A DNA stretch of 64,000 nt, from assembly GCA_964371245.1 (NCBI GenBank), contig CAYJKP010000002.1, forward strand, positions 102,960-166,959. The letters run 5' to 3'. Origin of the DNA: an uncultured Gammaproteobacteria bacterium. GTDB lineage: Bacteria > Patescibacteriota > Patescibacteriia > JAHIZJ01. The position numbers and the translations under genes are program-made. Position 1 is the first letter of the stretch; every line of letters begins with the position of its first letter. Positions 3,560 through 50,451 of the stretch are shown in pieces. The notes beneath the pieces are model-generated. The model worked only from the letters and a program-made list of their open reading frames with translations, had not been told where the DNA came from and did no database searches.

Positions 3560-4924
3560 CTACATACCTGCGAGGACCGGCTCGTTCATCACGTGAACGA
3601 TGACACTTGCCGTTCCCCGATTGTCGAAATAGCAGCTGGTACCATCCGTGTCGGGCTGATAGCGATTATCACCCTGGCGGACGGTATCATTGATATCGAG
3701 CCACAGATACCCCTTGGCGTTGACCTGGACGTAGCCGACCAAGTCATCGCCCGGCGGAAAGGCTGGATACCAGTTGTCGCCGCGATCGCCGATCCGATAG
3801 ATCACCGATCCGGCCGGCGCCTCGAGGGTGTAGAACCATCTCGGCGCCCGGAAGATCCGAGGATAGGCCAGCTGTCCCTGATGGACGCAGCCTCGGACCG
3901 TGGCCGTGTAGATCTTCGTCGTGCCAGGGGTCACCTCCCGCAGCCACTCGTACTGCGTGGTGTCTGCTTCCTCGAAGGCGAGGTACTGGCCAGGGTTGAG
4001 CATGATCGGGATCGGGTGCGGTCCAGGGCTTCGCGTGTCAAACGTGACCTGATACCGCGTGTCGTCGATCTTCTGCGTCAGCGGCGGCGCGATGACTGAC
4101 CCGAGCGCTTGCCCGTAGAACCCAGTGACTGGCTTATGGGTCAGTGACGGGAAGCCGACCTTGACAAGGCCGGCGCCGCTCAAACCCAGCAGGGCCAGTG
4201 CGAGCATCATCGCGGGAACCAGTCGCGTCGCCCGGTTCATGCCCATGGCGACCAGCGAAAGGATGAAGCCAAGCAAGACCATCTGGGAAGCGCTCTCGAA
4301 GCCGAGCCAACCGCTGACCGTGTGGAACAGGATCTTCAGATACAGCGGCATGCTCGCGGTCAGTGGCGGGATCAAGACGGTACAGGCGAAGAAGATGACG
4401 GCCATTTGAATGATAGCCAGTCCCTCCTTTCCGCCCGGCAGGCTCGTCACCTTCCGCTTGATCATATACCGCGTGATCAGCCAGGCCATCATGAGCGTGA
4501 GCAGCGGAATCGCGAACTGCATGGACCTGTAGATGTTCCAGGCGGTGTCGGGGTTGAACCAGGGGTAGACTCTCTTGATCGCGGCGACGGCCGACTGGTA
4601 CTGTTCCGCCTGGCGCTGGAGCGCGGCGCCGACGTTCTCGGTCACCGGGTGGGTCTTGACGTAGACGATCTTGGCCCAGAGGGGCTGGTTGTCCACATCG
4701 ATGACCGACTGGTACTTCACATACCCGGGGATCGTGCAAACCGCGATGACGATGACGAAGAGCGGAACCACTACCCTGGTCAGCTTCGAGAAGAAGTAGT
4801 CGCCGAGCCCGACGTGCACCGGTTCGCCCGCGGTTGCCCTGGCTTTTCGTTTCTTGACCTCGACAATACTGAAGACCACCGTCAGAACATAGACGATGAT
4901 CAGGAGCCACCAGAACCATGACAT
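3560..4924 (-). CDS. Polytopic membrane protein with a C-terminal extracytoplasmic domain (hypothetical), in a GC-rich island
   Basis: 454 aa with several hydrophobic helices (LLIIVYVLTVVFSIV, VVPLFVIVIAVCTI, AIPLLTLMMAWLI and others). High GC3 codon usage, unlike the neighbouring genes. Confidence 0.5.
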   Translation of the reverse strand: MSWFWWLLIIVYVLTVVFSIVEVKKRKARATAGEPVHVGLGDYFFSKLTRVVVPLFVIVIAVCTIPGYVKYQSVIDVDNQPLWAKIVYVKTHPVTENVGAALQRQAEQYQSAVAAIKRVYPWFNPDTAWNIYRSMQFAIPLLTLMMAWLITRYMIKRKVTSLPGGKEGLAIIQMAVIFFACTVLIPPLTASMPLYLKILFHTVSGWLGFESASQMVLLGFILSLVAMGMNRATRLVPAMMLALALLGLSGAGLVKVGFPSLTHKPVTGFYGQALGSVIAPPLTQKIDDTRYQVTFDTRSPGPHPIPIMLNPGQYLAFEEADTTQYEWLREVTPGTTKIYTATVRGCVHQGQLAYPRIFRAPRWFYTLEAPAGSVIYRIGDRGDNWYPAFPPGDDLVGYVQVNAKGYLWLDINDTVRQGDNRYQPDTDGTSCYFDNRGTASVIVHVMNEPVLAGM

Positions 4925-4984
4925 ATCGTGTACCTCCGTTGAGTACGGAAGGGGCTACCCGGTTACGAGCAGCCCCGACCAGTT

Positions 4985-6880
4985 CTACTTGCTTGCCGGA
5001 GGAGGCGGGCCTGAACCTTTCGATTCATCCTTGCCTCCCTTTTCCTTTTCTTCCTTACCCTTGTCGCCACCGCCGCCCTTGCCCTTTCGTCCGATCAGTT
5101 CGGCCGTCAGAGCGCTGTTCACTTCCTGACCGCCACCAATGATGACGACGGCGCCGGGCGGCAGATGTGTCAGTGTGTCCTGTTGAACCAGTGCGGCAGC
5201 GAGATCACCTTGACCGAGATAGGCCTTGCCGCGTTTGTCGATGGCTGCTGCCTCGGCATCGGCCTTGATCCGTAGCGCCTTGCCTCTCTTGTCGGCTTCG
5301 TATTCGATACGTAACAGTTCCGCGTCCTTCTCATCGGACGGATTGACGTCCGTGATCGCCATGTCGGTGATCACGAACCCAAACCTCCGCAAGGAACGCA
5401 GCGCCTGGAGAACGCCCGCTTCGGCCGGCTTGAAGTTGACCCTGTCGCTATCCGGCTCCATCTCGAGTGTTACCGGTTCGCCCTTGGCACAGCGCGACAC
5501 CGTTGTTGAGAGCTTGTCCTTGTTGCCGTAGGCGGCGGTGAACGACAGTTTCCGGATCAACGACCGCATGAAATCGAGCAGGATCTGGACGACGGCGTGT
5601 TCCCAGTCGTCGACCTCATAGATCGCCCGATAGGGGTTGCGGATCCGGCCGAAAACGACAAAGCTGATAGACACAGCCGGCCCGCTCAGGGTTTCCGCTT
5701 TCGGAATGGTGATCTGGATGCGGATTTGCCCAAGCGAGAGGTCGGGTCGGAGTTTCCGTTCCTGGCACACGGGATGGCCCCTGGCATCGCTTGTCCAGAC
5801 CCCAGGCTCCCGAATCGGGCGGATGACGTCAAATCCGGGGATGCCAATCACCTGAACGCCACCAAGCAGTTTCGCCCGCGGCTTTTCAAACGTCGGACAA
5901 TCTTCGATCGCCCAACGAATGTGATGCGCCGGCAGACGAAGCTCAGGCGAGAACGCAGTTTCATCTTGAAGTTCGTCGAGCGTGATAATATCGTGTTGGT
6001 CGAACAGCTCGGTCCAGCCCCCAACCATCTCAAACGCAGCCAATACCTCGAGAACCTTGTGTCGAGGCTGGGTCAGTGCCCAAGTCCAGAAACTCTCGGC
6101 CAGTGCGCGTGCGCGCTCCATGTCGATCGGATCGGAGTCGGGCTTGTCTGTCAGCCAGTTGTCGACCAAAGCCTTGTCTTTCATCGCCCGCTTCAGCCGC
6201 TCGGACAGCCACGATTTTGAGCGCACCTCGTCAGGCGGTTTGTTACGTTTTGGCTGCGCCAGAACGAGGCTGAGAAGAAACATCAGGCCGTTCAGTTTGG
6301 CTGCCGCGTCGGACGTGACGTGGGTGCGGTTGCGGTACGCCCAGAGGATCCAGCGGAAGCGTTTCTCCCGCTCGACCACCCTGAACGTCGCTTCGTAGAC
6401 AGTGGTGAGCCCGTAGTCCGCCTTCACCATCGAATCGATCGCGCCCACGAGGAGCACGAAATAGATGATGATGGCGACGATCTCCGGAACGACGTGACCC
6501 CTGGCAGCGATCAGAATGGCTGTGATCACAACGACCGACATGAACAGAATGACCGACCAGTATGTCTTGCCCGGCCCGCTCACCGTCAGGTTGTTCTTGT
6601 AAAACAGCCCCAGTGCCTCCAGCCAGCCGACCGGGCGGCTGAGTTTCTGTCTCTGTTTGCGTCGATACCACCACCACCAGCCTCCGAAGAGGCCAGCGAG
6701 GATACCGACCACGAGCAGGGTCACGACCAGCTGCGTCAAACCGTGAGTAACGGTAGCCGCAGCAGACCGCAGGCCAACGAGTCTCAAAACAGCCAGTATC
6801 AGCACAATGGCCACGGCTGCAATGAACAGCGGATAGACAACCCGCAACACGCTCTGCCACCGAAACGTACGTCCGAACAT
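4985..6880 (-). CDS. SPFH/band-7 (stomatin/flotillin-like) domain protein with an extended N-terminal membrane domain
   Basis: 631 aa. N-terminal TM helices and a WWWWYRRKQRQK stretch. A central band-7-like core (IPGFDVIRPIREPGVW...SISFVVFGRIRNPYRAIYEV). A flotillin-like Ala/Glu-rich C-terminus (RIKADAEAAAIDKRGKAYLGQGDLAAAL) and a Gly/Lys/Glu-rich tail. Confidence 0.6.
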   Translation of the reverse strand: MFGRTFRWQSVLRVVYPLFIAAVAIVLILAVLRLVGLRSAAATVTHGLTQLVVTLLVVGILAGLFGGWWWWYRRKQRQKLSRPVGWLEALGLFYKNNLTVSGPGKTYWSVILFMSVVVITAILIAARGHVVPEIVAIIIYFVLLVGAIDSMVKADYGLTTVYEATFRVVEREKRFRWILWAYRNRTHVTSDAAAKLNGLMFLLSLVLAQPKRNKPPDEVRSKSWLSERLKRAMKDKALVDNWLTDKPDSDPIDMERARALAESFWTWALTQPRHKVLEVLAAFEMVGGWTELFDQHDIITLDELQDETAFSPELRLPAHHIRWAIEDCPTFEKPRAKLLGGVQVIGIPGFDVIRPIREPGVWTSDARGHPVCQERKLRPDLSLGQIRIQITIPKAETLSGPAVSISFVVFGRIRNPYRAIYEVDDWEHAVVQILLDFMRSLIRKLSFTAAYGNKDKLSTTVSRCAKGEPVTLEMEPDSDRVNFKPAEAGVLQALRSLRRFGFVITDMAITDVNPSDEKDAELLRIEYEADKRGKALRIKADAEAAAIDKRGKAYLGQGDLAAALVQQDTLTHLPPGAVVIIGGGQEVNSALTAELIGRKGKGGGGDKGKEEKEKGGKDESKGSGPPPPASK

Positions 6881-7069
6881 TGAGACACCTCCGTTTCATC
6901 CGTTTCAGGCTTTCGCCTCTATACCGTTTGGATACCCTGTATTTCCAAGCTTACCCGCTGATTACCGCTAGGTTAAGCGTTACTAAACTGAAGTCCGTAG
7001 ATAACATGTCAAACAGCGAGTCTGACCCGCGATAGTAGCAAATTGTTTTCGTTTTGTCAAGGTCTTTGG

Positions 7070-7106
7070 AAAACAAAAAATCGCCAAACTGGGACACGAG
7101 GCGATA
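7070..7106 (-). terminator. Rho-independent terminator downstream of lgt (minus strand)
   Basis: Minus-strand read: atcgcctcgtgtcccagtttggcgat followed by ttttttgtttt. Confidence 0.4.
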
Positions 7107-7110
7107 TGTC

Positions 7111-7944
7111 TTAGACCTTATTGGATTGCGGAGGTCTGACCAGAAAAATAACCAAAAGACCGCAGATTATCGTACCAATCGAAAACCACTGGCTCGGATG
7201 CAGGTTGAAATATGTCAGCGGGTCAGACCCAATCAGGTCGGTCGCCCGCCAAAAATCGGCGACGAAGCGGAAAATTCCATAGAGGATAAAAAACAGTCCG
7301 CTCAACCAGCCGGGCCGGTCCGCAATAAATGGCGCCTTGCGTAATCGCCAAAAAATCATAAACACAACTAGCCCAAAAATAATTTCGTAAAAAGCCATGT
7401 CGTGCCGGATCGTCCCATCGATTAATTTTACTCCCCACGGCACCGTGGTTAGCTTCCCGAGATGGTCGTGGACGAAAAAACAGCCGAGCCGGCCCACAGC
7501 CAGGCCGAGCGGCAGCGAAAAGATGATTGTATCGGCATGCTCCCAGAACGGACGCTTCTTTACCCTTAAATAGAGCCAGCCAGCAAAAACGGCACCGGCT
7601 AAACCGCCATAGATGCCAAGTCCGCCCTCCCAGAGCTTAACAATATCGAGCGGCTGGTTTTGAAATTGCGACCATTCGTTCAAGACATAAAAAATCCGGG
7701 CGCCAACAAAAGCCGACACGATAATCACAATCGCTAAATCAAGTATTGTCGATACGGATTGGTTTTTCCGCTTCGCCTCGGACATACTTACTAGGACGCC
7801 GACCAATAAGCCGGCCGCCACCAATAAACCCCAAACATTTATGGATATTGGGCCGAGGCTGAAAGAATCTATTTCAAAATATGGAATCATAGGAACATCG
7901 AATAAATAAAAAAACGCGTTGTCAGCGTCTTTTCTTTTCTTCAA
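7111..7944 (-). CDS. lgt: Prolipoprotein diacylglyceryl transferase
   Basis: 277 aa polytopic protein. Lgt-like motifs VKLWEGGLGIYGGLAGAV and GRLGCFFVHDHLG (compare GRLGNFING/GGLSFHGG in characterised Lgt). Confidence 0.6.
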   Translation of the reverse strand: MKKRKDADNAFFYLFDVPMIPYFEIDSFSLGPISINVWGLLVAAGLLVGVLVSMSEAKRKNQSVSTILDLAIVIIVSAFVGARIFYVLNEWSQFQNQPLDIVKLWEGGLGIYGGLAGAVFAGWLYLRVKKRPFWEHADTIIFSLPLGLAVGRLGCFFVHDHLGKLTTVPWGVKLIDGTIRHDMAFYEIIFGLVVFMIFWRLRKAPFIADRPGWLSGLFFILYGIFRFVADFWRATDLIGSDPLTYFNLHPSQWFSIGTIICGLLVIFLVRPPQSNKV

Positions 7945-7960
7945 CTACCCCGAACACATG

Positions 7961-8131
7961 CTACCCGTGAGCTTTCAGAAAAATATGGAGATGCTCTTTT
8001 TCCATAATCGCCCCGCACTTGCAGCGCTTCGGCTCATCCGCGCTCGCCCAGCACCAGGGACAAACGTACCGCTCGCGTGAGAGCAAGCGGGCTTTGGTCG
8101 GTTGTCGGCGATAGGAAACTTTTACTTTCAT
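7961..8131 (-). CDS. Small Cys4 zinc-ribbon protein (hypothetical, 56 aa)
   Basis: Hand translation of the minus strand gives MKVKVSYRRQPTKARLLSRERYVCPWCWASADEPKRCKCGAIMEKEHLHIFLKAHG, with CPWC...CKCG as a zinc-ribbon signature. Below the ORF-track length cutoff. Confidence 0.3.
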   Translation of the reverse strand: MKVKVSYRRQPTKARLLSRERYVCPWCWASADEPKRCKCGAIMEKEHLHIFLKAHG

Positions 8132-8245
8132 ACTGCCATCAATACTACAATCTCCTAGAAATGCTGGAAGTTGATGGACTGTTGAAAAGACGTAAAAACT
8201 GTGTATGAAACTGTTGAAAAGATCGTTCTTTTGGCCAATGACAGC

Positions 8246-9019
8246 TTAATTCAGCGTCGCCGTGTTTGTTTCGGTGAGATCGAGGTTTGCCGGATTTAGC
8301 TCTGGAATAAACTGGTCGAGAAGATCATAGAAATCTTGCTTGCTCAACGCACCCTCAATCCGATACCCATTAATAAACATTGTCGGCGTTCCCTGGACAT
8401 GAGCAGCCAATCCTTCTTGGTAATCTGTTTTTACCTGCTCGGCATATTTTTGGCCCTCAAGACAACCAGTAAACGTGGTGACGTTTAGTCCAGTTCCTTG
8501 GGCTAGGGTGATGAGACTCGCTTGATCATTCGCCTCCGGCTGCAACCAGTACCGATCGTGAAAAAGCCAAAACTTCCCTTGCTCGTGGGCGCATTTGCCC
8601 GCTTCCGCCAGTCGAACAGAGGTAGCGTCAGTTTGATCGACGAAATCCCGATAGATCAACCGTACACTCGTTCCGTATTCAGAGGCTATCTCGCGAACAA
8701 TTTGGCCGGTTGCCTGACACTCCGCGCAGGCAAAATCCGAGAACTCTACAATGACAACCAGGGGGTTTATTTCACCGATGGCCGGACGATCAGCTGCCTC
8801 AACCTCCCGGTGCCGATCGAGTGACAGTCGGTCCACCGCCGAAACTGTTTGCGATTGACGCGCGTCGGCTGGCGTTTTCGTATTAAATAAATGATTCGAC
8901 CAGAGGATGACGCCAAGACCGAGCAGGGACAATCCAATGACGAGCAACAACAACCCCCACCGACGGAATTGCCGTGATGAGGGTTTATTGATTTGACGTG
9001 TATTCGTTTGCTCGGCCAT
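8246..9019 (-). CDS. DsbA-family thiol:disulfide oxidoreductase, membrane-anchored
   Basis: 257 aa. N-terminal TM (WGLLLLVIGLSLLGLGVILW), then a thioredoxin fold with VVIVEFSDFACAECQ (E-F-x-D-F-x-CxxC). Confidence 0.7.
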   Translation of the reverse strand: MAEQTNTRQINKPSSRQFRRWGLLLLVIGLSLLGLGVILWSNHLFNTKTPADARQSQTVSAVDRLSLDRHREVEAADRPAIGEINPLVVIVEFSDFACAECQATGQIVREIASEYGTSVRLIYRDFVDQTDATSVRLAEAGKCAHEQGKFWLFHDRYWLQPEANDQASLITLAQGTGLNVTTFTGCLEGQKYAEQVKTDYQEGLAAHVQGTPTMFINGYRIEGALSKQDFYDLLDQFIPELNPANLDLTETNTATLN

Positions 9020-9069
9020 GCGAAACCTCCCTTTAACCGACTGTCTTCGCTCGGTTCTCGCGTCCGAGA

Positions 9070-9897
9070 TTACTTGCCAATGATCGCTTTTACCTGGGCT
9101 TCAAGCGACGCGTATGAAACTGCGCCACCGAGCTCGGTTCCGTTCAAGAAATTCCCCGGCGTACCCTGGACACCGTTGCTCGTTCCGACGGTCGTATCGT
9201 TTGTGACGACGCTGGCCGTTGTCTTATTGGTGATACAATCATTAAATTGTGTCGCGTTCAAGCCAAGATCCTTGGCAATCTGTTTGTACAGATCGGTGCC
9301 AAGCGTCGCCTGATTTTCATACAACTTGTCGCTATATTGCCAGAAAACGTCGTTGCCTTTTTGTTTGGCGGCACACTCGGCGGCAATGGCGGCCGGCGTC
9401 GCCTCAGGGTGAAAGCTCAGTGGAAAATTCTTGAACACCCAGCGGACATCATTCGGATATGCCTTCATCAGCTGTACCATCGTTTCATGAAACTTCTCGC
9501 AATACGGGCATTGGAAGTCCGACCATTCGAGAATCGTCACTTTGGCGTCTTTGTTGCCACGAACATGGTCCGTGTCGGCAATGGCATAGTCGGTGGTCAG
9601 TGGCGCGCTCGGTGCGGAATTTGTATTGGTGTTGGCATTTGCACCGGCGACTACCTTGTTGGCGTTGTTCGTGTTGCTATTTTTTGCGGCTGTTTCGGGG
9701 AAACCGCCTTTAAAATATACGCCCAGCATGATAAAAAATCCGATTGAAAACAAAAGCATCATTCCGCCGACTAAACCAAAGATAAAGCTGGCTTTGGCAG
9801 ATAAGTTGGCGAAAATGCCTTTTACGCCTGATGGGCCAGACGGATTTTCTGGTCGGTCTTGACCGTGATAACCTTCAGCATATTGCATAGTACGCAT
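9070..9897 (-). CDS. DsbA-family thiol:disulfide oxidoreductase, membrane-anchored (second copy)
   Basis: 275 aa. TM (FIFGLVGGMMLLFSIGFFIMLGVYF), then ILEWSDFQCPYCEKFH (CPYC active site). Confidence 0.7.
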   Translation of the reverse strand: MRTMQYAEGYHGQDRPENPSGPSGVKGIFANLSAKASFIFGLVGGMMLLFSIGFFIMLGVYFKGGFPETAAKNSNTNNANKVVAGANANTNTNSAPSAPLTTDYAIADTDHVRGNKDAKVTILEWSDFQCPYCEKFHETMVQLMKAYPNDVRWVFKNFPLSFHPEATPAAIAAECAAKQKGNDVFWQYSDKLYENQATLGTDLYKQIAKDLGLNATQFNDCITNKTTASVVTNDTTVGTSNGVQGTPGNFLNGTELGGAVSYASLEAQVKAIIGK

Positions 9898-10075
9898 TCT
9901 CCTTTAAATTAAGAGTTAAGCGGCGTAACTAATTGTTTATAGTACGTGAATTTTATTAACTTGTCAAATAGATTTTTCTCCACAGTCCGCCTGTTTGCCA
10001 AACCCTCAGCTCACTTTCAGCTTTCGTATAAAAAAATAACAAAAAATGAGCCCGCATTAACATTTTTTGTTTGAG

Positions 10076-10609
10076 TTACTTTTTACGATACTTACGTATG
10101 ACGATAACAATTGCCGCCGCGCCGAGTAACGGCCAGACGATCATGAAAATGGTAAGATACAGCGTGCTCTTTTTTTGCAGGCCATTACCCTCCTGTTCAG
10201 GGTGCGCCAGATACTCATAATATCGGTCAAGGACTTCCTGGGGTGAATCGCAACGCACGGCTTGGCACTGAATGATTGTGTTCTCAATCTCGCTTGTGAT
10301 GGCGGCGCTATACCCGACATATACGTTTTTTCCGGCAAAGACGGTCGGCGTCTGTCGACTCGGCATCTGATAGAGTGTCAGTAGATCTTCAAAAATTGCC
10401 CGGTTATCTGAATCTGTGCTCACGTCAAAGGTCGCTAAAATGATACCATATTTATTTTTGAAGCCGGACAGCGTATCGTCCATCGATTGGCAGCTCGGGC
10501 AACCGCTTTCATAGAAATAAAATACTTCCACCGTTTCTTTCGCCTGGGCGGGTCGAACTGAGAGTGCCGCCGCCACGACGATGAGACTGATGAGTAGGTA
10601 TTTCTTCAT
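10076..10609 (-). CDS. Exported thioredoxin-like CxxC protein with a C-terminal TM anchor
   Basis: 177 aa. Signal peptide MKKYLLISLIVVAAALSVRPAQA, CPSC motif (VFYFYESGCPSCQ), C-terminal TM LYLTIFMIVWPLLGAAAIVIVI followed by RKYRKK. Confidence 0.55.
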   Translation of the reverse strand: MKKYLLISLIVVAAALSVRPAQAKETVEVFYFYESGCPSCQSMDDTLSGFKNKYGIILATFDVSTDSDNRAIFEDLLTLYQMPSRQTPTVFAGKNVYVGYSAAITSEIENTIIQCQAVRCDSPQEVLDRYYEYLAHPEQEGNGLQKKSTLYLTIFMIVWPLLGAAAIVIVIRKYRKK

Positions 10610-10610
10610 C

Positions 10611-12290
10611 TTAAAAACGGACTACTTGTTTAGGTTGCAGTGGATGCGTCTGGTCGTTCCGGCGAGGCGGTTGCGTTGGCTGAGGCCTCGGTCGCTGGTT
10701 ATTGTTCGGCTTATTCTTGGGACGTTGGTTCGGTGCGGGTGGCGGACCGGGACGTTTCATTTGCTTAAACAATACCGGCTCTTGCTTGAGCGCCGTCTGC
10801 AAGCTGATCGCCTGTGGGACCGCCGGCCCGTCTTCGACAATTTGAACGCCCGTTTCTTCGTCAGCATCGTTGCTGGCCAGATTTATTCTCACCCGTTGAT
10901 GATCACCGTTTGGTCTCGGCTGGACGTCGTTCCGCGGTCGACTGTTGGCTGGGGTCGTCTCGTTCTGGTCTTCATCATCGTCGCCGTTCTCGGTCGGTTC
11001 AATGCCGGCCCAACGGGATATTTTTTCCTCAACCACTTGGCGGGCGGTTGAATACCGTTCCCGGGAAACCTTGATAATTTTTTCATGAGTCTCTTCTGCC
11101 TCGGCCGTATAGAGCGGTGGCAGCCCTCGGGCGGAAAACGGCTCCGAGGCAACGCCATCAATCATGAGCTTGAGATACATTTCAAACTTGGTCAGATTAA
11201 CAAGATCGTTTTGCATGAAAACAGGCTCGAACTCCTTTTCGAGAAACTCAGCGTCAGCGGCGCCCACCCGGAAACAGACTAAGGTACCGACGTTCCCGAA
11301 AACCGCCGCCTGAACCGTTTCATCAAGCTGCTCAATATATTGATGGGCAATAATCAGATCAAGCCGATATTTTCGGGCTTCGGACAGGATATTCGCAAAG
11401 CTTTCCGTGGCAAAATTCTGAAACTCATCGACGTACAGAAAGAAATCGCGGCGCTCTAATTCCGGCATATCGACCCGACTCATCGCGGCGAGCTGGAGTT
11501 TTGTGATCATCATCGCGCCAAGCAAGGCCGCATTATCCTCGCCAATCCGTCCTTTTGACAGATTCAGCAAGAGGATTTTCCCGCTGTCCATAATATCGCG
11601 CATGTCAATCGAGCTTTTTGTTTGACCGACAATATTTCGGATGATCGAGCTCGATAAAAATTGCCCGACTTTGTTCTGGATCGGAGAAATCGCCTCGGTC
11701 CGAAATTGATTGCTATAAGCGGCATATTCATCAAGCCAAAACGCCTTGAGGATCGGATCGGTTAGGCGGGTGACAACTTTTTTTCGGTATTTGTTATCGA
11801 CGAGCAGACGAGTGATGCCGAGCAGAGTTGAGCCGGGGTACTCAAGCAACGATAAAACCGTGTTACGGAGTACATACTCCAACCGCGGGCCCCAGGAGTC
11901 CGCCCAGATTTTTTTGAAAACGCCCACCAATCCCGAGGCCACGAGGTGTCGGTGAACGGGATTCACGGATTCCAGGACGTTAAAGGCGATCGGATAATCA
12001 ATATCAGCCGGATTGAAATAGATCACGTCGTTCGTTCGATTAGCCGGAATAAAATCAAGGAGTTTTTCGACCAGGTCGCCGTGCGGATCCACGACCGCGA
12101 GCCCGTGACCGGCCTGGATGTCGGAAACGATCATGTTCTCGAGCAGCGTCGTTTTTCCCATTCCGGTTTTTCCGATGACATACATGTGCCGGCGCCGATC
12201 ATCCAGTTTAATGCCAAAACGCCGTTTTTGATTACGGAAGTTTGTTTCTCCAAAAAGGGTAATATAGTTTTTTGGCTCGGGCATTGTCAT
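10611..12290 (-). CDS. TrwB/TraD/VirD4-like P-loop ATPase (type IV coupling-protein family) with no obvious TM segment and a Pro/Gln-rich C-terminal tail
   Basis: 559 aa. Walker A plus family motif HMYVIGKTGMGKTTLLENMI...LAVVDPHGDL (TrwB has ...GATGTGKS...IVDPNGD). Walker B FFLYVDEFQNF. LIIAHQYIEQL Q-motif. Low-complexity PPAPNQRPKNKPNNNQRPRPQPTQPP tail. Confidence 0.55.
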   Translation of the reverse strand: MTMPEPKNYITLFGETNFRNQKRRFGIKLDDRRRHMYVIGKTGMGKTTLLENMIVSDIQAGHGLAVVDPHGDLVEKLLDFIPANRTNDVIYFNPADIDYPIAFNVLESVNPVHRHLVASGLVGVFKKIWADSWGPRLEYVLRNTVLSLLEYPGSTLLGITRLLVDNKYRKKVVTRLTDPILKAFWLDEYAAYSNQFRTEAISPIQNKVGQFLSSSIIRNIVGQTKSSIDMRDIMDSGKILLLNLSKGRIGEDNAALLGAMMITKLQLAAMSRVDMPELERRDFFLYVDEFQNFATESFANILSEARKYRLDLIIAHQYIEQLDETVQAAVFGNVGTLVCFRVGAADAEFLEKEFEPVFMQNDLVNLTKFEMYLKLMIDGVASEPFSARGLPPLYTAEAEETHEKIIKVSRERYSTARQVVEEKISRWAGIEPTENGDDDEDQNETTPANSRPRNDVQPRPNGDHQRVRINLASNDADEETGVQIVEDGPAVPQAISLQTALKQEPVLFKQMKRPGPPPAPNQRPKNKPNNNQRPRPQPTQPPRRNDQTHPLQPKQVVRF

Positions 12291-12293
12291 AGG

Positions 12294-13814
12294 CTAGGCA
12301 AAAGGCAAATTGGGTGGCGGTTGACCAGCCGGCGGTTTCGATGGTTCGGCCGGAGGCGGGGTGGCTGGGACAGCAGTCGGCGGCACAGCAAAAGGCGGCG
12401 GTGTTTGCGGCTGGGGCGTAGCCGGCAGAGCTGCTGGTGGCGCCTGTTGAGGTTGCGTCGGCAGGGAGGTTGGCGGTGGCGCGGCCGGGGTGACAGATGG
12501 CTGGAAGGGCCGAAACGGTGAGCCAAATTCATGCATCGGTAAGCCGGCCGGCGGTTCGCCGCGTTTGCTTTCGATCTTGCTCACCAGAGGCGCTTTCACG
12601 GTTAAAACCGGGAAGTGGAAAATGGTCGCCAGCTCCTCGATATTCATAATAATACCTTTTCCGGCCAGGCGCTGTTTATAGGTTTTCATCAACCGCCGCT
12701 GACGACGGGCCAGGCGAGCTTTATTAAAGAAGATGAAATTACTTTTTGTAAAAGTAACCTTGTCAGGCTTGAAGCTGTTCATATTCACGGTCGCGAATTG
12801 ATTTAAGGCACCAAAAATTGCGTTGATACCAGTTCCTTTGTTCGTCAGCGCCTTTTCAGCCAAATAGCAATAGCGGAATTTCGTTTCATAGGCACGCTTC
12901 GCCATTTTCACCTGCATCGCTTCAACAATCCCCTTTTCGCCGGGCGTCAGCTGCATCATCCAGTTTTTCGGCTTAGTCTGTTCCGGCCTGGTTTCGCCCG
13001 GGGCAAAGAGCGAGGCAGTCAAGGTTTCATAGGTTCCCTTGGCTACTCCACCGACCGGCCCGAGGAGTGGCTTGGCTTTGCTTTGTTCACCGATCATTTT
13101 ATTGATAATTGTACGGCCTTGCTCCATCCAGCCAGTCGAATCAATCGGCCGGATAACAAGCTGGATCCAAATCTGCTCGCCCTGCCTGAGCTTGCCTAAT
13201 ATTTCCAGCAAGCCCGCCATCGGATCAGCAAGCTGTTGCGACAAGCTGTGCTCAAAATCGACATAGGTGCGGATTGGAAACGCATTCGGCTTTGAAAACA
13301 CAATGCTCGATCCGTAGAGATCATATTTATCGTTCGGGAATTTATCCGGTGAGCCTTTCGTATAATCATCGACCTCGGTAATAACGGAGTCGGGATATTG
13401 GGCATAGAAAGCGGACTCGACCAGATCACGGAACTGCACCGGCGTCCGGATCATAAATTGAATATATCCGCTGATGCTGGCCAGCTCGAGACTAAGGGTT
13501 AACTGGACCTTCCCTTTAAAATATTTCTCGATAATGTTCGGTTTTGAGAGTATGCCCGAAAACTGCGCGTAGATTTGTTCAATCGCTTTCAGATTCGGCT
13601 CGATTTCCCGCGGGACGTCAATGGCCAAGAGGACAAACTTCTGCGAGGCGATAAATCTTTGTTTGAGCGTCAGCTGCCAATACGAAATGCCGATGACAAA
13701 GATTGAGGCGACTAACATCACCCACCCGCCACTAATAAAAAACTGCCAGAAGTAACCGAAGGGCAGGAGACTCCCAATAACTGAAGGCTCACTGACGTCA
13801 ATCACGAATGGCAT
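12294..13814 (-). CDS. Membrane protein partner of the TrwB-like ATPase (hypothetical; N-terminal TM, Pro-rich C-terminal tail)
   Basis: Start moved to MPFVID (ATG complement at 13812-13814) so it does not overlap the upstream gene. TM helix GGWVMLVASIFVIGISYW. C-terminus is about 80 aa of P/A/T/Q-rich low complexity. Confidence 0.45.
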   Translation of the reverse strand: MPFVIDVSEPSVIGSLLPFGYFWQFFISGGWVMLVASIFVIGISYWQLTLKQRFIASQKFVLLAIDVPREIEPNLKAIEQIYAQFSGILSKPNIIEKYFKGKVQLTLSLELASISGYIQFMIRTPVQFRDLVESAFYAQYPDSVITEVDDYTKGSPDKFPNDKYDLYGSSIVFSKPNAFPIRTYVDFEHSLSQQLADPMAGLLEILGKLRQGEQIWIQLVIRPIDSTGWMEQGRTIINKMIGEQSKAKPLLGPVGGVAKGTYETLTASLFAPGETRPEQTKPKNWMMQLTPGEKGIVEAMQVKMAKRAYETKFRYCYLAEKALTNKGTGINAIFGALNQFATVNMNSFKPDKVTFTKSNFIFFNKARLARRQRRLMKTYKQRLAGKGIIMNIEELATIFHFPVLTVKAPLVSKIESKRGEPPAGLPMHEFGSPFRPFQPSVTPAAPPPTSLPTQPQQAPPAALPATPQPQTPPPFAVPPTAVPATPPPAEPSKPPAGQPPPNLPFA

Positions 13815-13851
13815 AAAACATACGTATAATTGTGGTTTAGGTGTTTGTTTC

Positions 13852-15030
13852 TTACGACTGGACTGGTTCGGCTGGCGCTTTCTCAGCGAGACGGAAGTGT
13901 CCATCCGATGTTTTCGTAAACCGTTTCTGATCGGTTAGCGCTAAATGAATGGTATTTTTTTTCACCAGCCGCTGCTTCAGGACCGCTTCGACGATTTGTT
14001 CGCGGCTCAGCGGCTCTGACGACTTCTTTAATATTTCGACGATAACGTCAGCGACGACGCCCGGCTTGTACCCCCATTCTTTCAGGGCATAAATGCCACG
14101 GCCGACGAGGACATAGCGGTCATTCAATATCAATTCGTTGTGGATGGTCGGTGGGTAGGCTTTTCGGTTGTCAAAATGAATTTTATTAATCCGTTCGGCA
14201 ATCTTCGTAAAATGCATCGGCTTGCCTTCTTTTTTCAGAATCAAGTATATCTTATCGTTCATCCGCCGCGGTACGATCGTGCCCCATTCGCTTAAGCCGT
14301 AGTCGCCAAAGGGATTGCGACTAATTTTCTGGCTCATGGTGGCGTACCCGATGAGTGCCTGGTCGTTCGCCTCCGGCTCGCTTGGCCCGGCTGGGTGCTT
14401 CTGCCGGTAGGATTGGATCAATTCTTTTTCAGTCATCGGCTCGCCCTTGGCCGTAATGTTGGCGACCAGCCGGTCGATCACCTGACGCACCTGCTCAAGC
14501 GAACAGGTCGGAAGATACCAGGAAGCGCAAAAATAATCATTCTCTGGCTGGGCGATGAATTGCTTCGTCAACAGCCGAGAGAGGATGAACATCACCGACT
14601 GCCGGGCGATCGGCGTATCAGTCGAAAATTCAAAAAGTTGCTCGAGGAGTCGATCTTTTGAGATAGCCCCGCCGTCCCGTTCGATCACGGTTTTAATCGT
14701 TTGATCAATCGGCTCGATCAGTTCCCGAAAGTTCTTTAAACCGCGAATTTTTTTCACGGCTGTGCTTTCGATTTGCCGGATCCGTTCTCGAGTCAAGTTA
14801 TAGAATTGGCCGATTTCCTCCAACGTCTGCTTTGTTTTGCCATTCAACCCATACCGGCGTCGCAAGACGTCTTCTTCTTTGTTCGTGAGCAATTTCAAGA
14901 GCGCAGCCACTGCCTCGGGCGGGTTGAATTCGCGCATTTGTTCAGTCTGCTTGCTGAGAATTACTTTGTCGAGAATTGAATCTTCCATAAAAATGTATTT
15001 TTTTCCCAAATATTGAAGCAAAAACGGCAA
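13852..15030 (-). CDS. Protein with an N-terminal sigma70 region-4-like HTH and a long C-terminal domain (hypothetical regulator)
   Basis: 392 aa. LRRRYGLNGKTKQTLEEIGQFYNLTRERIRQIESTAVKKIRGL matches the sigma70 region 4.2 HTH consensus. The remaining 300 aa are unassigned. Confidence 0.45.
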   Translation of the reverse strand: MPFLLQYLGKKYIFMEDSILDKVILSKQTEQMREFNPPEAVAALLKLLTNKEEDVLRRRYGLNGKTKQTLEEIGQFYNLTRERIRQIESTAVKKIRGLKNFRELIEPIDQTIKTVIERDGGAISKDRLLEQLFEFSTDTPIARQSVMFILSRLLTKQFIAQPENDYFCASWYLPTCSLEQVRQVIDRLVANITAKGEPMTEKELIQSYRQKHPAGPSEPEANDQALIGYATMSQKISRNPFGDYGLSEWGTIVPRRMNDKIYLILKKEGKPMHFTKIAERINKIHFDNRKAYPPTIHNELILNDRYVLVGRGIYALKEWGYKPGVVADVIVEILKKSSEPLSREQIVEAVLKQRLVKKNTIHLALTDQKRFTKTSDGHFRLAEKAPAEPVQS

Positions 15031-15170
15031 TGAACGATATTACTATACTTTTGGTACTCTGTCAACAATATTTCTCCTCTATCATTAGTATAGCATAACA
15101 TTGATAAAGTGTCAAGCTTTTGTATTCAAATATAAAATTGCCTTCTTGGCAACTTGAATATCAGACTTTC

Positions 15171-16079
15171 CTATCTTGCTTGGCGCCGCGTTTTCAATTT
15201 TTGCCAAACCACCAGGAGCGGGCTGGCCACAAAGATCGATGAATACGTTCCGGCGATGATTCCGATGATCATGGCAAAGACAAACCACCGAATAGAGTCG
15301 CCGCCGAAAAAATAGAGGGCGGTAAGGACGAAGAGTGTGGTTAATGATGTGTTGAGTGAGCGAGCCAGAGTCTGGTTGATCGCTTGATTGATTGTTTCCT
15401 CAAAATTATTGGCCGCGCCACGCAACATATTTTCCCTGATTCGATCGAAGACGACGATCGTGTCATGGACGGAAAAGCCAAGGATCGTTAAGAGGGCGGT
15501 GATAAAGAGCGCGCCCACCTCAACCTGATAGACGTAGCCGAGAAAAGCGTAGACGCCGAGAATGACAATCATATCGTGCACCAAGGCGATCACGGCTGCC
15601 ACGCCCATAACCCAGCTCGGGATGATCGTCGTTTTTGATATTTTCCGAAAAGCGATGGTGATATAGATGATGATTCCAAGCATGACAAAAATTACGGCTT
15701 GGACGGCGCGGGACTGTAATTCCTTGCCGATCGTCGGTCCAACCGATTCAAAGCTTTCTTCTTGAACATTGCCATAGGCCTGGTTCAGTCCATCAAGGAG
15801 GGCGGCCCGTTTCTCATTATCGATTGTTTGGGATCGGATCGTTATTCCTTGATCTCCCGAGGGTTGGATGGACTCGGTTGGCAAACCTAGCTCTTTTAGT
15901 TTTGCTTGGAGATCCTGGGGACTCGGTCGATTGGCAGAAAAATTTAGCTGCCAGATCGTACCACCAGTGAAATCAATATTCGGTTTCAGGCCGCCAAGAG
16001 AAAGGAAAACGATACCAGGAACAAGAATGATGCCTGAGAGCACGAACCACCAATATTTTCTTTGGATAATTCGATACAT
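15171..16079 (-). CDS. secF: Protein translocase subunit SecF
   Basis: 302 aa with six TM helices and a SecD/SecF family C-terminal TM bundle. Adjacent to secD. Confidence 0.85.
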   Translation of the reverse strand: MYRIIQRKYWWFVLSGIILVPGIVFLSLGGLKPNIDFTGGTIWQLNFSANRPSPQDLQAKLKELGLPTESIQPSGDQGITIRSQTIDNEKRAALLDGLNQAYGNVQEESFESVGPTIGKELQSRAVQAVIFVMLGIIIYITIAFRKISKTTIIPSWVMGVAAVIALVHDMIVILGVYAFLGYVYQVEVGALFITALLTILGFSVHDTIVVFDRIRENMLRGAANNFEETINQAINQTLARSLNTSLTTLFVLTALYFFGGDSIRWFVFAMIIGIIAGTYSSIFVASPLLVVWQKLKTRRQAR

Positions 16080-20419: not shown

Positions 20420-21799
20420 TTACTGCACCAACATCAGCCGATTCTTCTCTTTCTTCACTGGCACCCACTTGAAGCTGCCAGTCACCGAGTCGATATAGGC
20501 AACTTTCAAATATTTACGGCCGAGGAGATTAGCCAGTTTCGTCCCAATCCGGGCTGAATCCGACTCGAGCATTTGGAGGCGCTGTTTTAACAGGTATTGG
20601 AGCCAGAGGCTGTAAAATACCGGGTCGGTCGGCTGGGCGTCGAACTGAGTCAATGATTCTGGTCCGTATTTCTCTTTCAAATAATCCCGAAACACACTGT
20701 CGGTTTTCATAACCATAGCTAAATCCTGAGTTTTCGCCAAAACGTGCAAGAACGCTATCACTCGGTTTCGGTTATTGCCTCGAATTGCCTCTTCAAATTC
20801 CGGCCGGATGTTCAGCTGTTCCCGGCCGACTCGTTTCAGAATATTTTTTTCCTCCTCGTAGATCGCCTTTTGCTCATCCGGGTTTTGGGAGTAGATTTTC
20901 AGGAGATTCTCGACACCAAGGTGGCTTGGCTTGGCGTTTGTTTGCTCCGCCGCTGGCCGAGCACCGACGGTAGCCGGAGCGGCGCCGGCCTTGCTTCGGT
21001 TGTAATCAGCGTCGTATTTTTCGACTATGTCATACCATTTTTCCATTCGTTTCTGCTCTTCCCGCTCTTTTTCGCTGTATTTTTCTAATACGCCGCCGCG
21101 AATCGTGCCCGTTGCAGCCGGATCATCGACCGGCACGGCGGATTCAAAACCGGCCGGCGAATCAGACGGCGTCTTCAGATACTCGAGGAACTCAAAGAAA
21201 GACCGCAAGCGCTCGCGCGACTCTTTGCCTAGCGCTTTCGTGTTTTGGCTGTTAACGAGATATTCCGACAGGCGGATTGACGTAATCTGTTGGGTACCTA
21301 GCGCAATCACCTCGTCAAGCGCCCAATTTTTTACCGTTCCAGCCTGCTCTTTGCCGTCTTTGGTGACTGATTCATGCGTTAAGACCTCAGTATTGTTCCG
21401 GATGGCCTCGAGAATTTCTTTTCTCAGCGCATTTCTGTCCTCGAGACGGACGAACGTAACCAGCTTGTGCTTCAATTTCTCGATTAAATTAAAGTCGGGG
21501 ATCTGCCACGTTAAGATATAGTGGTCCTGAAACAAGGGGATAATGACCGGTTCGCGGTACCAGGGCAAGGCGATCCAACGCAGCTTCCACTGCAGGGTTT
21601 CGTACTCCTTATAGACGGCGGCGTCACTGGTCGGCAGCTCCGGACGCGCGGCCAGGTTGCGGGCGATTACCTCGGCCAATTCAAACGCCTGCTCGCCCAT
21701 GTCATATTTCGCGCAAACGCTAAAAGAATCCTGAAACCTGGCTAGTGTCTCGGGGCTTTCAAATGCTTTGGCTTGGTTGTTTGGTGTTGCGTCGACCAT
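20420..21799 (-). CDS. Hypothetical cytoplasmic protein (459 aa), last gene of the giant-protein operon
   Basis: No recognisable motifs. Has a charged Glu/Lys-rich central segment. Co-oriented and tightly spaced with the upstream genes. Confidence 0.4.
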   Translation of the reverse strand: MVDATPNNQAKAFESPETLARFQDSFSVCAKYDMGEQAFELAEVIARNLAARPELPTSDAAVYKEYETLQWKLRWIALPWYREPVIIPLFQDHYILTWQIPDFNLIEKLKHKLVTFVRLEDRNALRKEILEAIRNNTEVLTHESVTKDGKEQAGTVKNWALDEVIALGTQQITSIRLSEYLVNSQNTKALGKESRERLRSFFEFLEYLKTPSDSPAGFESAVPVDDPAATGTIRGGVLEKYSEKEREEQKRMEKWYDIVEKYDADYNRSKAGAAPATVGARPAAEQTNAKPSHLGVENLLKIYSQNPDEQKAIYEEEKNILKRVGREQLNIRPEFEEAIRGNNRNRVIAFLHVLAKTQDLAMVMKTDSVFRDYLKEKYGPESLTQFDAQPTDPVFYSLWLQYLLKQRLQMLESDSARIGTKLANLLGRKYLKVAYIDSVTGSFKWVPVKKEKNRLMLVQ

Positions 21800-21804
21800 A
21801 AATT

Positions 21805-24594: not shown

Positions 24595-24620
24595 TATTTG
24601 CCGATGAATCGACGTCTTCG

Positions 24621-38266: not shown

Positions 38267-39430
38267 TTAAATTACGTTGATAAAGAGGGAAAATATCGCC
38301 GCGATCCAAAACAGCGTATTCAAGCCGATGGCGCCGACCAGGAAAAATAACAAGATAAAAACAATAATCCGACCGATATTGAGTGACATTTCGCGGAAGA
38401 CGCTCATTTCATCGACGTAATGGCCGGCATCGGCCATTTGTTCATAGGTCAAGGCGTCGAATGGCGTCCGCATAACCGTACTGGCGAGGTTGTGATAGGT
38501 TGAGGCGATAAAAATCTGATAGCCGGTCGTGACAAACGTCTTCGCACCCCAGCCGATCGCGTAAATCACCGTGCCCCAGCGAAGCAGTTTGTGTTTGGAA
38601 AAGGCGTCGGTAAACCGCCCCATGATGAGCTGCACGACGATCGTCACAAAAACCGCCAACGTAGAGACGGCGCCGATTTCGAAATAGTTGTGATTCAATA
38701 TTTGGTAGATAAAGAGCGGCCAGATGGACAGACCGATTCCATTTTCAGCCCCCTCGGCGGCATAGGCAAACAACAAACGCCGGTGCTTCGTAAAAAGGAG
38801 GCGGTAGGTTTCAAAATAGCCGTAGGAAAACTTTTCTCTCACCGGACGAGTGAAGATCAGGGGGAAGATCGACAGAAAGACTAATATAACCACAATAATT
38901 AAGAGATTTTGGTACCCATATTTGGCAATGATGAAGCCGGCCGCGATCGGAATGGTGATGCCGACCAGATCGGCGATGGCATTGAAATAGCTGAGTTGCC
39001 GGCCGCGATTTCGGCGGCTCGTGAACTCAGCCAGCTCGGTGTGATACGGCACCCAGTATAAACACCGCCAGATAGTTGTCATCCCGATTGCAATCAAGAT
39101 AAAGGTCCAAACGCCGTTTTGAACAAAATAATACGCGACGTAGGAAAGCGCTAAAAACGGTATGCCGATCATCATTGACCGCTTCAAGCCCAGCCGGCTC
39201 ATCGCCCGGGCGCCCGGCTGGATGAACAGGAGGTAGGCCAACCATTCGAGGATGTAAAACACGATCACCGCCTTGAGCGAGAAATTCAGCTTCTCGTACA
39301 AAAAGATGGGCAAAAATATGCCCAGCAGGCTCGTGGCCGCATTCTGAATCAAGCGCTGCGAATAGAGCGCGATGATGTCGGGCGTGAACTTTCCCTTTGG
39401 TTTTTCGAGTGAAAAGGTCTCTTTAGACAT
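38267..39430 (-). CDS. MFS-like polytopic membrane transporter, paralog B
   Basis: 387 aa with the same architecture as 36472-37638. Confidence 0.5.
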   Translation of the reverse strand: MSKETFSLEKPKGKFTPDIIALYSQRLIQNAATSLLGIFLPIFLYEKLNFSLKAVIVFYILEWLAYLLFIQPGARAMSRLGLKRSMMIGIPFLALSYVAYYFVQNGVWTFILIAIGMTTIWRCLYWVPYHTELAEFTSRRNRGRQLSYFNAIADLVGITIPIAAGFIIAKYGYQNLLIIVVILVFLSIFPLIFTRPVREKFSYGYFETYRLLFTKHRRLLFAYAAEGAENGIGLSIWPLFIYQILNHNYFEIGAVSTLAVFVTIVVQLIMGRFTDAFSKHKLLRWGTVIYAIGWGAKTFVTTGYQIFIASTYHNLASTVMRTPFDALTYEQMADAGHYVDEMSVFREMSLNIGRIIVFILLFFLVGAIGLNTLFWIAAIFSLFINVI

Positions 39431-42896: not shown

Positions 42897-43073
42897 GATC
42901 ACAATACAATTAATTAATCGACGGCTCGTCTTCAAAAGCATATCATTTTTTTGGGGTTTTGCCACGTGAAAATCCATCATACGACTATACCTTGACAGTA
43001 CCGGCATCGCATGATAACCTACTAAATATCAAAACGAAGTGATGCAATAACGTAGCTAATATTAGCCAATTAA

Positions 43074-48244: not shown

Positions 48245-48351
48245 ATTTATTGTCTAAATTATTGGTTATGTTAGAATACAAAAGCAGTAATCTGCACCAA
48301 AGACTTCTTGTTTAGCGATGGGGAGTCTTTTGGTATATTGTTTCGCTTTCT

Positions 48352-48756: not shown

Positions 48757-48768
48757 AAATTATAAAAG

Positions 48769-50380: not shown

Positions 50381-50451
50381 TTTCGATAAATTATTTTGTT
50401 AGAGGACAATTTTTAGTGCTCACAGACACAAATAGGGGGGTCAAAACGGGG

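Follow-up and report, generated by a model that had tools for sequence, protein, structure and literature searches.

A survey of Patescibacteria counted 5,713 VirD4-type homologues in 2,918 of 3,035 genomes (96%), only 148 of them near virB4, and its authors could not exclude exaptation of these proteins (Quinonero-Coronel et al. 2025, PMC12102498). The Patescibacteria type IV secretion system (T4SS) is essential in the single species for which this was tested, and neither a coupling protein nor a relaxase could be recognised in its gene cluster (Wang et al., PMC10633639). For pIP501 it has been proposed that the coupling protein TraJ is anchored by a separate membrane protein, TraI (2025 review, PMC12857230). 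Here we analyse a stretch of 64,000 nucleotides (the window; contig CAYJKP010000002.1, positions 102,960 to 166,959) of a Kerfeldbacteria-like Patescibacteria (Candidate Phyla Radiation, CPR) chromosome, in which a gene for a 506-residue membrane protein carrying the DUF8128 domain directly precedes a gene for a 559-residue ATPase, with a gene for a sigma-like protein, here called SigHARE, upstream of both. Judged from the sequence comparisons given below, the 506- and 559-residue proteins are the two halves of one DUF8128-class type IV coupling protein (T4CP). The orphan T4CPs of the 2025 survey are very probably the same gene set as the window ATPase and were thus already known; what the present analysis adds is architectural detail, as the DUF8128 partner, the split and fused relation, the fold like that of the VirB4 N-terminal domain (NTD), the neighbour with sigma region 4 and HARE-HTH domains and the alternative gene contexts are not described there. 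In the literature searched we found neither the name DUF8128 nor any account of the partner, of the division into two genes, of a VirB4-like fold or of a neighbour resembling a sigma factor.

The 559-residue protein is a TrwB/VirD4-type T4CP ATPase without a membrane anchor of its own. It contains the coupling-protein signature that a sequence-only reading of the locus had recognised (GKTGMGKTT, VVDPHGD, LYVDEFQ and IIAHQYIEQL), and its Walker A, Walker B and HQ motifs are invariant in an alignment of 24 homologues. Four Pfam models score above their cut-offs: TrwB_AAD_bind (46.7 bits, cut-off 20.5), DUF87 (29.5 bits, cut-off 23.2, under the TrwB_AAD_bind score), TraG-D_C (26.1 bits, cut-off 22) and T4SS-DNA_transf (24.9 bits, cut-off 20.1). 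Pfam FtsK_SpoIIIE reached 15.9 bits (cut-off 24) and VirB4_CagE (TIGR00929) 18.7 bits (cut-off 643). The NCBIfam equivalog models (TraD, CD1115) all scored far under their cut-offs, which places the ATPase outside these named subfamilies. TrwB is its top match among PDB sequences and also ranked first when the AlphaFold model was searched with Foldseek (E = 3e-11, target-normalised template-modelling score 0.55); DotL and Cagbeta also matched, after TrwB and HerA. Scans of the window gave no match to a NurA-like protein or to the FtsK gamma domain. The ATPase does not fall firmly into the HerA or FtsK clades by profile or by partners; TrwB is the best match by fold and by sequence, and the ATPase aligns with T4CPs of T4SS clusters with an hhalign E-value of 5e-67.

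The model of the ATPase comprises a RecA-type core, for which the predicted local distance difference test score (pLDDT) is mostly 70–90, an all-alpha insertion at about residues 111–236 and disorder from residue 426. As the sequence-only reading had it, there is no transmembrane segment (the highest 19-residue Kyte–Doolittle mean is 1.31). The tail (residues 429–559) was modelled with low confidence. Both proteins do end in low-complexity tails, which had been called Pro/Gln/Ala-rich; the composition is P/Q/N/R in the ATPase and Pro/Ala in the partner. An ISLxxL motif is common to all ATPase tails. For the comparison of loci we used the best 80 (59–79% identity) of at least 594 ATPase relatives confirmed in species-representative genomes, with flanks of ±8 kb, and counts of related loci below refer to this set. 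A CxxC...CxxC zinc-finger pattern occurs in the tail in 40 of the 56 relatives linked to DUF8128 and in 18 of the 24 others, and one relative's tail that was checked with Pfam is zf_Tbcl_2; the window ATPase tail has no such pattern. Set against what defines a T4CP, the protein has the P-loop with intact Walker A and B motifs, the curated profiles and the TrwB-like fold. It lacks an N-terminal transmembrane domain on the same chain, the transmembrane helix being located on the separate DUF8128 protein, and no T4SS or relaxase genes adjoin it, either in the 64-kb window or in the flanks of the 80 relatives.

The relation between the two genes emerged from their plasmid homologues. A tblastn search of plasmids with the ATPase returned relatives at 28–42% identity, among them an 812-residue Embleya protein of which the ATPase corresponds to the C-terminal half. 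BLASTP of the partner against this Embleya T4CP gave two collinear high-scoring segment pairs in the N-terminal half (E = 4e-6 and 2e-5). With the Embleya N-terminal half as the query, actinobacterial proteins were recovered, most of them carrying PF26449 (DUF8128) and many long enough to include an ATPase; about one third also match TrwB_AAD_bind, DUF87 or TraG-D_C on the same chain, so that PF26449 is combined with PF10412, PF01935 and PF12696 in single proteins. In hhalign, partner residues 43–434 align with fused positions 59–389 (probability 95.8%, E = 7e-9) and ATPase residues 21–424 with fused positions 400–807 (probability 100%, E = 5e-67). The partner alignment is significant only with profiles on both sides; the partner profile against single fused sequences gives probabilities of 5–14%. 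The junction is recognisable as well. Fused forms of 878 and 923 residues occur in two CPR-like metagenome contigs, directly 3' of SigHARE, and in fused forms an EPPxKLP motif is followed by the ATPase N-terminus within about 15 residues. Standalone DUF8128 proteins terminate in ..PxNLP[FIV]. In the window partner, EPPAGLP closes the domain, and PPPNLPFA lies at the extreme C-terminus beyond a Pro-rich linker. From the collinear matches and the junction motifs we conclude that the pair represents a split gene, with the C-terminal motif marking the old junction. The sequence-only reading had seen only a membrane protein here; these comparisons identify that protein as the N-terminal half of the coupling protein itself, now separate from the ATPase.

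Two further groups of loci show other arrangements of these genes. In the loci L093, L105, L107 and L113, the roughly 4.5 kb downstream of a SigHARE–DUF8128 pair hold no ATPase gene, and thus the halves can be encoded apart; the DUF8128 protein ends exactly at ..PxNLP[FIV], without a Pro-rich linker, in L093, L105 and L107 and ends differently in L113. Two Bacillaceae megaplasmids of about 0.9–1.1 Mb (NZ_CP062975.1, 341–345 kb, and NZ_CP045273.1, 692–696 kb) carry DUF8128 and the ATPase in three ORF pieces, and the Priestia record fuses DUF8128 to the first piece. The idea that these are misfiled CPR genomes using genetic code 25 was rejected, as reading through TGA leaves the three-piece ATPase unjoined; frameshifts, insertions or assembly errors may account for the pieces. 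The sigma-like genes of these megaplasmids encode ordinary sigma factors and not SigHARE.

The fused form is found within conjugative T4SS clusters. The order VirB4-like, DUF8128–T4CP, Replic_Relax is the same on an Embleya plasmid, on the Nonomuraea chromosome and in a metagenome-assembled genome of Acidimicrobiia; the Embleya and Nonomuraea clusters additionally hold TrbL (VirB6-like), PrgI (VirB3-like) and NlpC/P60 genes, and that of Nonomuraea also has a T4SS_pilin gene. This content indicates that the fused family is a genuine coupling protein of monoderm conjugative T4SSs, distinct from their VirB4. The Nonomuraea cluster spans L178, 3002–12667, and its pilin is VirB2-like. A pilin is generally missing from Gram-positive T4SSs and is characteristic of the Patescibacteria T4SS (PMC12857230, PMC10633639), and its presence beside a fused DUF8128–T4CP hints at a common origin of the actinobacterial and Patescibacteria T4SSs.

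The partner has a single N-terminal transmembrane helix (Kyte–Doolittle 2.25) followed by basic residues and is not polytopic; by the positive-inside rule, the bulk of the protein would be cytoplasmic. After the helix come an alpha/beta domain, predicted to lie in the cytoplasm, the EPPxxLP junction motif, the Pro/Ala-rich linker and PPPNLPFA, and the tail (residues 427–506; 38% Pro, 15% Ala) is of low confidence in the AlphaFold model. Pfam and NCBIfam scans of the partner gave no match with a Pfam set that did not include the PF26449 model. Its assignment to DUF8128 comes from homologue annotation, PF26449 being annotated on most of the listed homologues from 70% identity downwards, and from the hhalign match to the PF26449-bearing part of the actinobacterial proteins, and not from a direct PF26449 score. 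The family comprises 3431 clusters at 50% identity (E ≤ 1e-3).

The partner model has a pLDDT of 78 overall and more than 90 in the core, and Foldseek ranked TrwK (VirB4) chains first, with no RecA-type ATPase in the list of fold matches. As DUF8128 has no P-loop, we take the match to be with the VirB4 NTD, a deduction from the missing P-loop and not a reading of the alignment range, and the model thus predicts a VirB4-NTD-like fold for the DUF8128 domain. With this fold match, the pair would reproduce the VirB4-like layout of a membrane-associated NTD plus an ATPase, but with a T4CP-type ATPase. Against the pair being itself a VirB4 stand the TIGR00929 score, the absence of TrwK from the top 50 Foldseek matches of the ATPase and the lack of sequence similarity: the partner has no match to the Embleya VirB4 in hhalign and no sequence similarity to the NTD of that protein, and the partner profile found no match among PDB sequences.

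All three ORFs are present on the minus strand as the sequence-only reading described them, and the order downstream of secD–secF is SigHARE, DUF8128 partner, ATPase and a gene for a 177-residue protein. The features of the locus are as follows.

15135–15155, minus strand: terminator-like hairpin that follows secF
15087–15115, minus strand: promoter-like site, TTGACA-17-TATACT with an upstream TG, between secF and the SigHARE gene
13852–14988, minus strand: SigHARE gene, 378 residues by public gene calls; the ORF reaches a TTG at 15030, giving 392 residues
about 14743–14898, minus strand: sigma-70 region 4 of SigHARE
about 13855–14253, minus strand: two HARE-HTH winged helices of SigHARE
12294–13904, minus strand: longest partner ORF, 536 residues
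12294–13814, minus strand: DUF8128 partner gene, 506 residues, start M31 in public gene calls
about 13665–13742, minus strand: N-terminal transmembrane helix of the partner
12297–12320, minus strand: C-terminal motif PPPNLPFA of the partner
10611–12290, minus strand: T4CP-type ATPase gene, 559 residues
12150–12173, minus strand: Walker A of the ATPase, GKTGMGKT
11421–11438, minus strand: Walker B of the ATPase, LYVDEF
10614–11006, minus strand: disordered ATPase tail, residues 429–559, with conserved motifs ISLxxAL and C-terminal QVV[KR]F
10076–10609, minus strand: exported thioredoxin/TraF-like protein, 177 residues, with a C-terminal transmembrane segment

The gap between the SigHARE and DUF8128 genes is 37 nt and that between the ATPase stop and the 177-residue gene is 1 nt. 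The coupling of partner and ATPase that had been read from the sequence stands, as does the membrane nature of the partner, but the gap is 3 nt (ATG at 12290) or 9 nt (gene-caller ATG at 12284) rather than 4. The promoter-like site scores 11 of 12 by consensus match alone and is just downstream of the hairpin; it is the likely start of the transcription unit, and its position after the post-secF hairpin suggests that the four genes have a unit of their own. The 177-residue protein matches Pfam TraF (E = 2e-6) and Glutaredoxin. Its gene is next to the module only in near-identical contigs, with no homologue beside the module in the 80 related loci (phmmer, E ≤ 1e-5); it is probably co-transcribed with the ATPase gene and is no conserved member of the module. 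It belongs to an envelope-biogenesis run directly 3' of the ATPase (7111–10609, minus strand), which comprises the 177-residue protein, two DsbA/Thioredoxin_4 proteins and Lgt; the LspA gene stands apart from this run, at 55204–55674 (minus strand).

The ATPase has more than 8000 homologues, of which the best 120 (60–95% identity) are almost all from Patescibacteria. The 80 related loci come from Kerfeld-, Falkow-, Moran-, Buchanan-, Uhr-, Magasanik-, Komeili- and Doudnabacteria and Parcubacteria. The DUF8128 gene is directly 5' of the ATPase gene in 56 of the 80, mostly with a gap of 1–30 nt, the SigHARE gene adjoins the DUF8128 gene in 45 of the 51 with enough flank, and secDF lies 5' of the sigma-like gene in about half. 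The sequence-only reading had proposed the three genes as a group, and their conservation in relatives bears this out; the same gene order in dozens of related genomes is far beyond chance. In a rough neighbour-joining tree, the CPR ATPases form one clade with the fused CPR forms at its base. The variants lacking DUF8128 are nested among the DUF8128-linked ATPases, and outside this group branch the fused CPR forms, the actinobacterial proteins and a gene from a Sulfitobacter plasmid. This branching suggests that the ancestral protein was fused and was later split, and that the partner was afterwards lost or relocated in some loci.

Most of the 19 loci without DUF8128 beside the ATPase share another context: NrdR–NrdD–NrdG, a small protein with one transmembrane segment, the ATPase, an RNase_T-type exonuclease and a glycosyltransferase family 2 gene. 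This is seen in L015, L019, L022, L030, L032, L042, L045, L047, L048, L052, L053, L055 and L065 (about 4000–12000 in each), where DUF8128 and SigHARE are absent within 8 kb. The small protein is a coiled coil with one transmembrane segment, mostly of 81–143 residues, the ATPase has a zinc-finger tail, confirmed as zf_Tbcl_2 in L055, and the glycosyltransferase is a membrane protein. Four others (L079, L080, L082 and L088) show the context HIT, NUDIX-like, ATPase, zf_Tbcl_2 ORF. The ATPases here have 705–753 residues; a 110-residue ORF follows in L079 and L082, that of L082 having two zf_Tbcl_2 fingers, and these ATPases nest by Uhr-/Magasanikbacteria-type loci with secDF–DUF8128–ATPase and no SigHARE. 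The L084 contig encodes a second T4CP-like paralogue (11200–13613), 5 kb 3' of its SigHARE–DUF8128–ATPase trio and far more divergent (E = 1e-104 against the window ATPase), and paralogues of this type may account for the roughly two T4CP homologues per genome in the literature.

These data bear on a suggestion of the sequence-only reading that the genes are the decaying remnant of an integrated conjugative element. The family does descend from conjugative T4CPs, and there are no relaxase or mating-pair genes nearby. Against decay, the catalytic motifs are all intact and invariant, identity is 59–79% over many candidate phyla, the tree follows lineages, the chromosomal context is fixed next to secDF, and the GC content of the module (0.50–0.51) equals that of its flanks. 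Only six relatives of the ATPase were found in 2.9 million viral contigs, none with partners, which does not fit a remnant of a mobile element. A search of 9800–15300 found no oriT-like inverted repeat. The conservation data effectively refute this suggestion. The module is a vertically inherited, highly conserved, housekeeping-like derivative of a conjugative coupling protein: its architecture, homology, split and fused relation, conservation, intact catalytic motifs and vertical inheritance are all directly grounded in the data.

The sigma-70 region-4-type helix-turn-helix that had been noted in the 392-residue upstream protein was confirmed (Pfam Sigma70_r4, E = 3e-13, residues 45–96 of the 392-residue ORF); two HARE-HTH domains (E = 8e-10, two stretches) had been missed. 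The protein has no sigma regions 2 and 3, and NCBIfam and PDB sequence matches cover region 4 alone. With only region 4 found and the remainder made up of two HARE-HTH domains, SigHARE is not a sigma factor. A reverse search from SigHARE found 23 full-length relatives in metagenomes, at only 26–39% identity. DUF8128 or a fused protein is directly 3' of SigHARE in 16 of about 18 informative loci (four of these without an adjacent ATPase), and SigHARE is missing from all ATPase loci without DUF8128. No two of these genes are thus more closely associated than SigHARE and DUF8128, and this favours a functional connection over mere synteny. A different view would be that SigHARE is a general transcription factor, associated with RNA polymerase in the manner of sigma region 4 or delta, that sits beside the module only through inherited gene order and has no part in its function. 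Both of its domains are related to RNA polymerase (sigma region 4 and the HARE-HTH of RNA polymerase delta), the synteny of secDF in about half of the loci shows that gene order is conserved by descent, SigHARE is missing at six of the 51 DUF8128–ATPase pairs, and there is no SigHARE in the actinobacterial and Bacillota relatives. However, DUF8128 is still directly 3' of the distant SigHAREs, also in loci where secDF or the ATPase is not a neighbour, gaps are frequently below 20 nt, and every ATPase locus that lacks DUF8128 lacks SigHARE too. We regard this view as unlikely.

We propose, with a probability of about 0.55, that the split DUF8128-class T4CP is most likely the substrate receptor and motor of a Patescibacteria T4SS encoded elsewhere in the genome. 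That the halves bind each other, what SigHARE does, which substrate is moved and that the motor is coupled to a T4SS are predictions from the genes, as is any interaction among the three proteins. The DUF8128 chain would tether an ATPase ring, presumably a hexamer, at the cytoplasmic membrane through the flexible Pro-rich linker. The C-terminal PPxNLP motif, which corresponds to the residues preceding the ATPase N-terminus in fused forms, would probably dock onto the ATPase, and the VirB4-NTD-like domain would probably contact VirB3/6/8-type membrane proteins of the T4SS. SigHARE, as a lineage-specific third component, could bind DNA and present a nucleic-acid substrate as an adaptor, or else act as a dedicated regulator. 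The disordered ATPase tail, with its conserved short motifs and the zinc finger that most relatives have, would probably recruit substrates or adaptors. SigHARE and the ATPase tail might then choose the substrate, with ATP hydrolysis powering its hand-over. The three helix-turn-helix modules, together with the zinc fingers of the relatives, suggest that the substrate is probably nucleic acid.

Several observations weigh against this proposal. The 64-kb window holds no T4SS gene; scans of its other large ORFs with Pfam and NCBIfam found no VirB4, VirB6 or relaxase family, in agreement with what the sequence-only reading had stated. None was found in the flanks of the 80 relatives, which is a weak test (phmmer with actinobacterial queries). 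T4CP homologues are present in 2,918 Patescibacteria genomes and VirB4 in 2,417 (PMC12102498), and this excess implies that some T4CP homologues work without a T4SS. The T4CP homologue of Southlakia was reported to be non-essential, whereas its T4SS is essential (PMC12102498). DUF8128 is not beside the ATPase in 19 of the 80 loci, nor is the ATPase beside four SigHARE–DUF8128 pairs. At the level of the models, HerA (Foldseek E = 3e-10) is close behind TrwB, the ATPase model is moderate (pLDDT 63 overall and about 50–70 in the all-alpha region), and the likeness to the VirB4 NTD is structural only, with no sequence signal.

The main rival holds that the module is a membrane-anchored nucleic-acid translocase independent of any T4SS, fully exapted, like FtsK/SpoIIIE or a DNA import or export pump. 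DUF8128 would then be the anchor, and SigHARE and the tail zinc finger of the relatives the DNA-recognition parts. The excess of T4CP over VirB4 among the 3,035 genomes agrees with it, the authors of that survey having themselves raised exaptation (PMC12102498), as do the module never being beside T4SS genes in related loci, the FtsK-like layout (a hexameric motor held by a transmembrane anchor and a Pro-rich linker, with winged helices to bind DNA), the very high identity across lineages and the alternative contexts rich in nucleotide-metabolism genes (NrdR–NrdD–NrdG, RNase_T exonuclease, HIT and NUDIX), although the last may be mere inherited synteny. On the other hand, the closest non-CPR relatives are coupling proteins within complete T4SS clusters, the VirB4-NTD-like domain suggests docking to VirB3/6/8-type partners, and FtsK is present in at least the Saccharibacteria, according to published papers. 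We consider a T4SS-independent translocase to be possible, at clearly less than even odds.

A more far-reaching reading can be formulated, in which the trio is an ancient domesticated T4CP machine that serves nearly all Patescibacteria in a housekeeping role unconnected with conjugation. As a hexameric translocase tethered to the membrane, with the ancestral VirB4-like two-domain layout retained, it would be a living intermediate between VirB4 and VirD4, and SigHARE, as its own DNA-recognition subunit, would guide the movement of nucleic acid across the membrane or to the pilus-bearing T4SS in exchange with the host cell. This is speculative and we hold it to be doubtful; if true, it would offer a direct handle on the cargo of the essential Patescibacteria T4SS.

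The sequence-only reading had also raised the possibilities that the ATPase works in a non-canonical secretion or uptake system with the 929-residue membrane protein, to which the 3351-residue protein may be added, or serves comM-dependent DNA uptake. What speaks for these is proximity alone, the 929-residue protein being 9.5 kb and comM 34 kb away. No homologue of the 929-, 459-, 631- or 454-residue proteins was found in any of the 80 related loci, and secDF, a TerC gene and a gene for a PEP-utilising enzyme intervene; comM itself is disrupted by a 6.5-kb insertion with a serine recombinase. We found no partnership with the 929-residue protein and no positive evidence for a role in uptake, and both ideas are highly improbable. 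The region 20420–34676 (minus strand) encodes the 3351-residue ORF (CBM_4_9 match only), then the 929-residue protein, with about 7–8 N-terminal transmembrane segments, then the 459-residue protein; the latter two have no family match in Pfam and NCBIfam scans and no homologues near the module in the 80 loci. The comM gene (span 45813–53830, minus strand) is split by the insertion, which is of low GC content (35–43%) and about 6.5 kb long, into a C-terminal part (45813–46643; Mg_chelatase positions 38–207 and the C-terminal domain) and an N-terminal part (53135–53830; ChlI and the first 26 Mg_chelatase positions). Genes for a large serine recombinase (46556–48244) and an SNase/Excalibur nuclease (51251–52255) lie within the insertion, which looks like an integrative element. 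A 156-residue ORF at 55204–55674 was considered as the missing comM N-terminus and rejected, as it is LspA and the true N-terminal part is at 53135–53830. The 1194-residue leucyl-tRNA synthetase (39423–43007, minus strand) has internal Pfam Ham1p_like (residues 286–360) and NUDIX (residues 632–746) matches, inserts of the nucleotide-pyrophosphatase type.

A large part of bacterial diversity belongs to the Patescibacteria, which depend on host cells. The module, present in most lineages and highly constrained, makes a strong candidate for the substrate receptor still missing from their T4SS, and its two previously undescribed partners are concrete proteins for functional study. A structural identity is also proposed for a Pfam domain of unknown function with about 3,400 sequence clusters; a VirB4-NTD-like fold of DUF8128 would bear on the divergence of the T4SS ATPase families VirB4 and VirD4.

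Compared with known systems, the window ATPase has the same fold (a nucleotide-binding domain with an all-alpha insertion) and Pfam families as TrwB (R388), VirD4, DotL and Cagbeta, at only 16–18% identity; these canonical T4CPs have two N-terminal transmembrane helices joined to the ATPase in one chain and no VirB4-NTD-like domain. VirB4 (TrwK) with VirB3 is a different case, since the window ATPase matches T4CPs and not VirB4, and the actinobacterial clusters hold a separate VirB4. Like the module, FtsK/SpoIIIE combines a hexameric motor of the FtsK/HerA superfamily with winged-helix DNA recognition, a long Pro/Gln-rich linker and an anchor in the membrane, but in the module these parts are on three polypeptides, the Pfam score is below the cut-off and nothing points to a role in division. 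TraJ/TraI of pIP501 (PMC12857230) is similar to the window pair in combining a coupling ATPase that lacks transmembrane segments with a separately encoded membrane anchor. However, TraI is a small protein with two transmembrane segments and no large cytoplasmic domain, whereas the window anchor has 506 residues and a predicted VirB4-NTD-like domain; the proteins of about 81–164 residues with one transmembrane segment that lie 5' of the 'type B' ATPase relatives resemble TraI more than the DUF8128 partner does. The DUF8128-fused actinobacterial T4CPs (Embleya plasmid NZ_CP108778, Nonomuraea and Acidimicrobiia) share the most with the window pair: both halves are homologous and collinear, and the EPPxxLP-then-ATPase junction and the Walker motifs are held in common. 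The actinobacterial form is one chain of 680–810 residues beside VirB3, VirB4, VirB6, pilin, Replic_Relax and NlpC/P60, on plasmids or integrative and conjugative elements, whereas the window form is encoded by two genes whose products have additional Pro-rich tails; it lies in chromosomal surroundings of the housekeeping type, next to a sigma-like partner gene and without T4SS genes close by.

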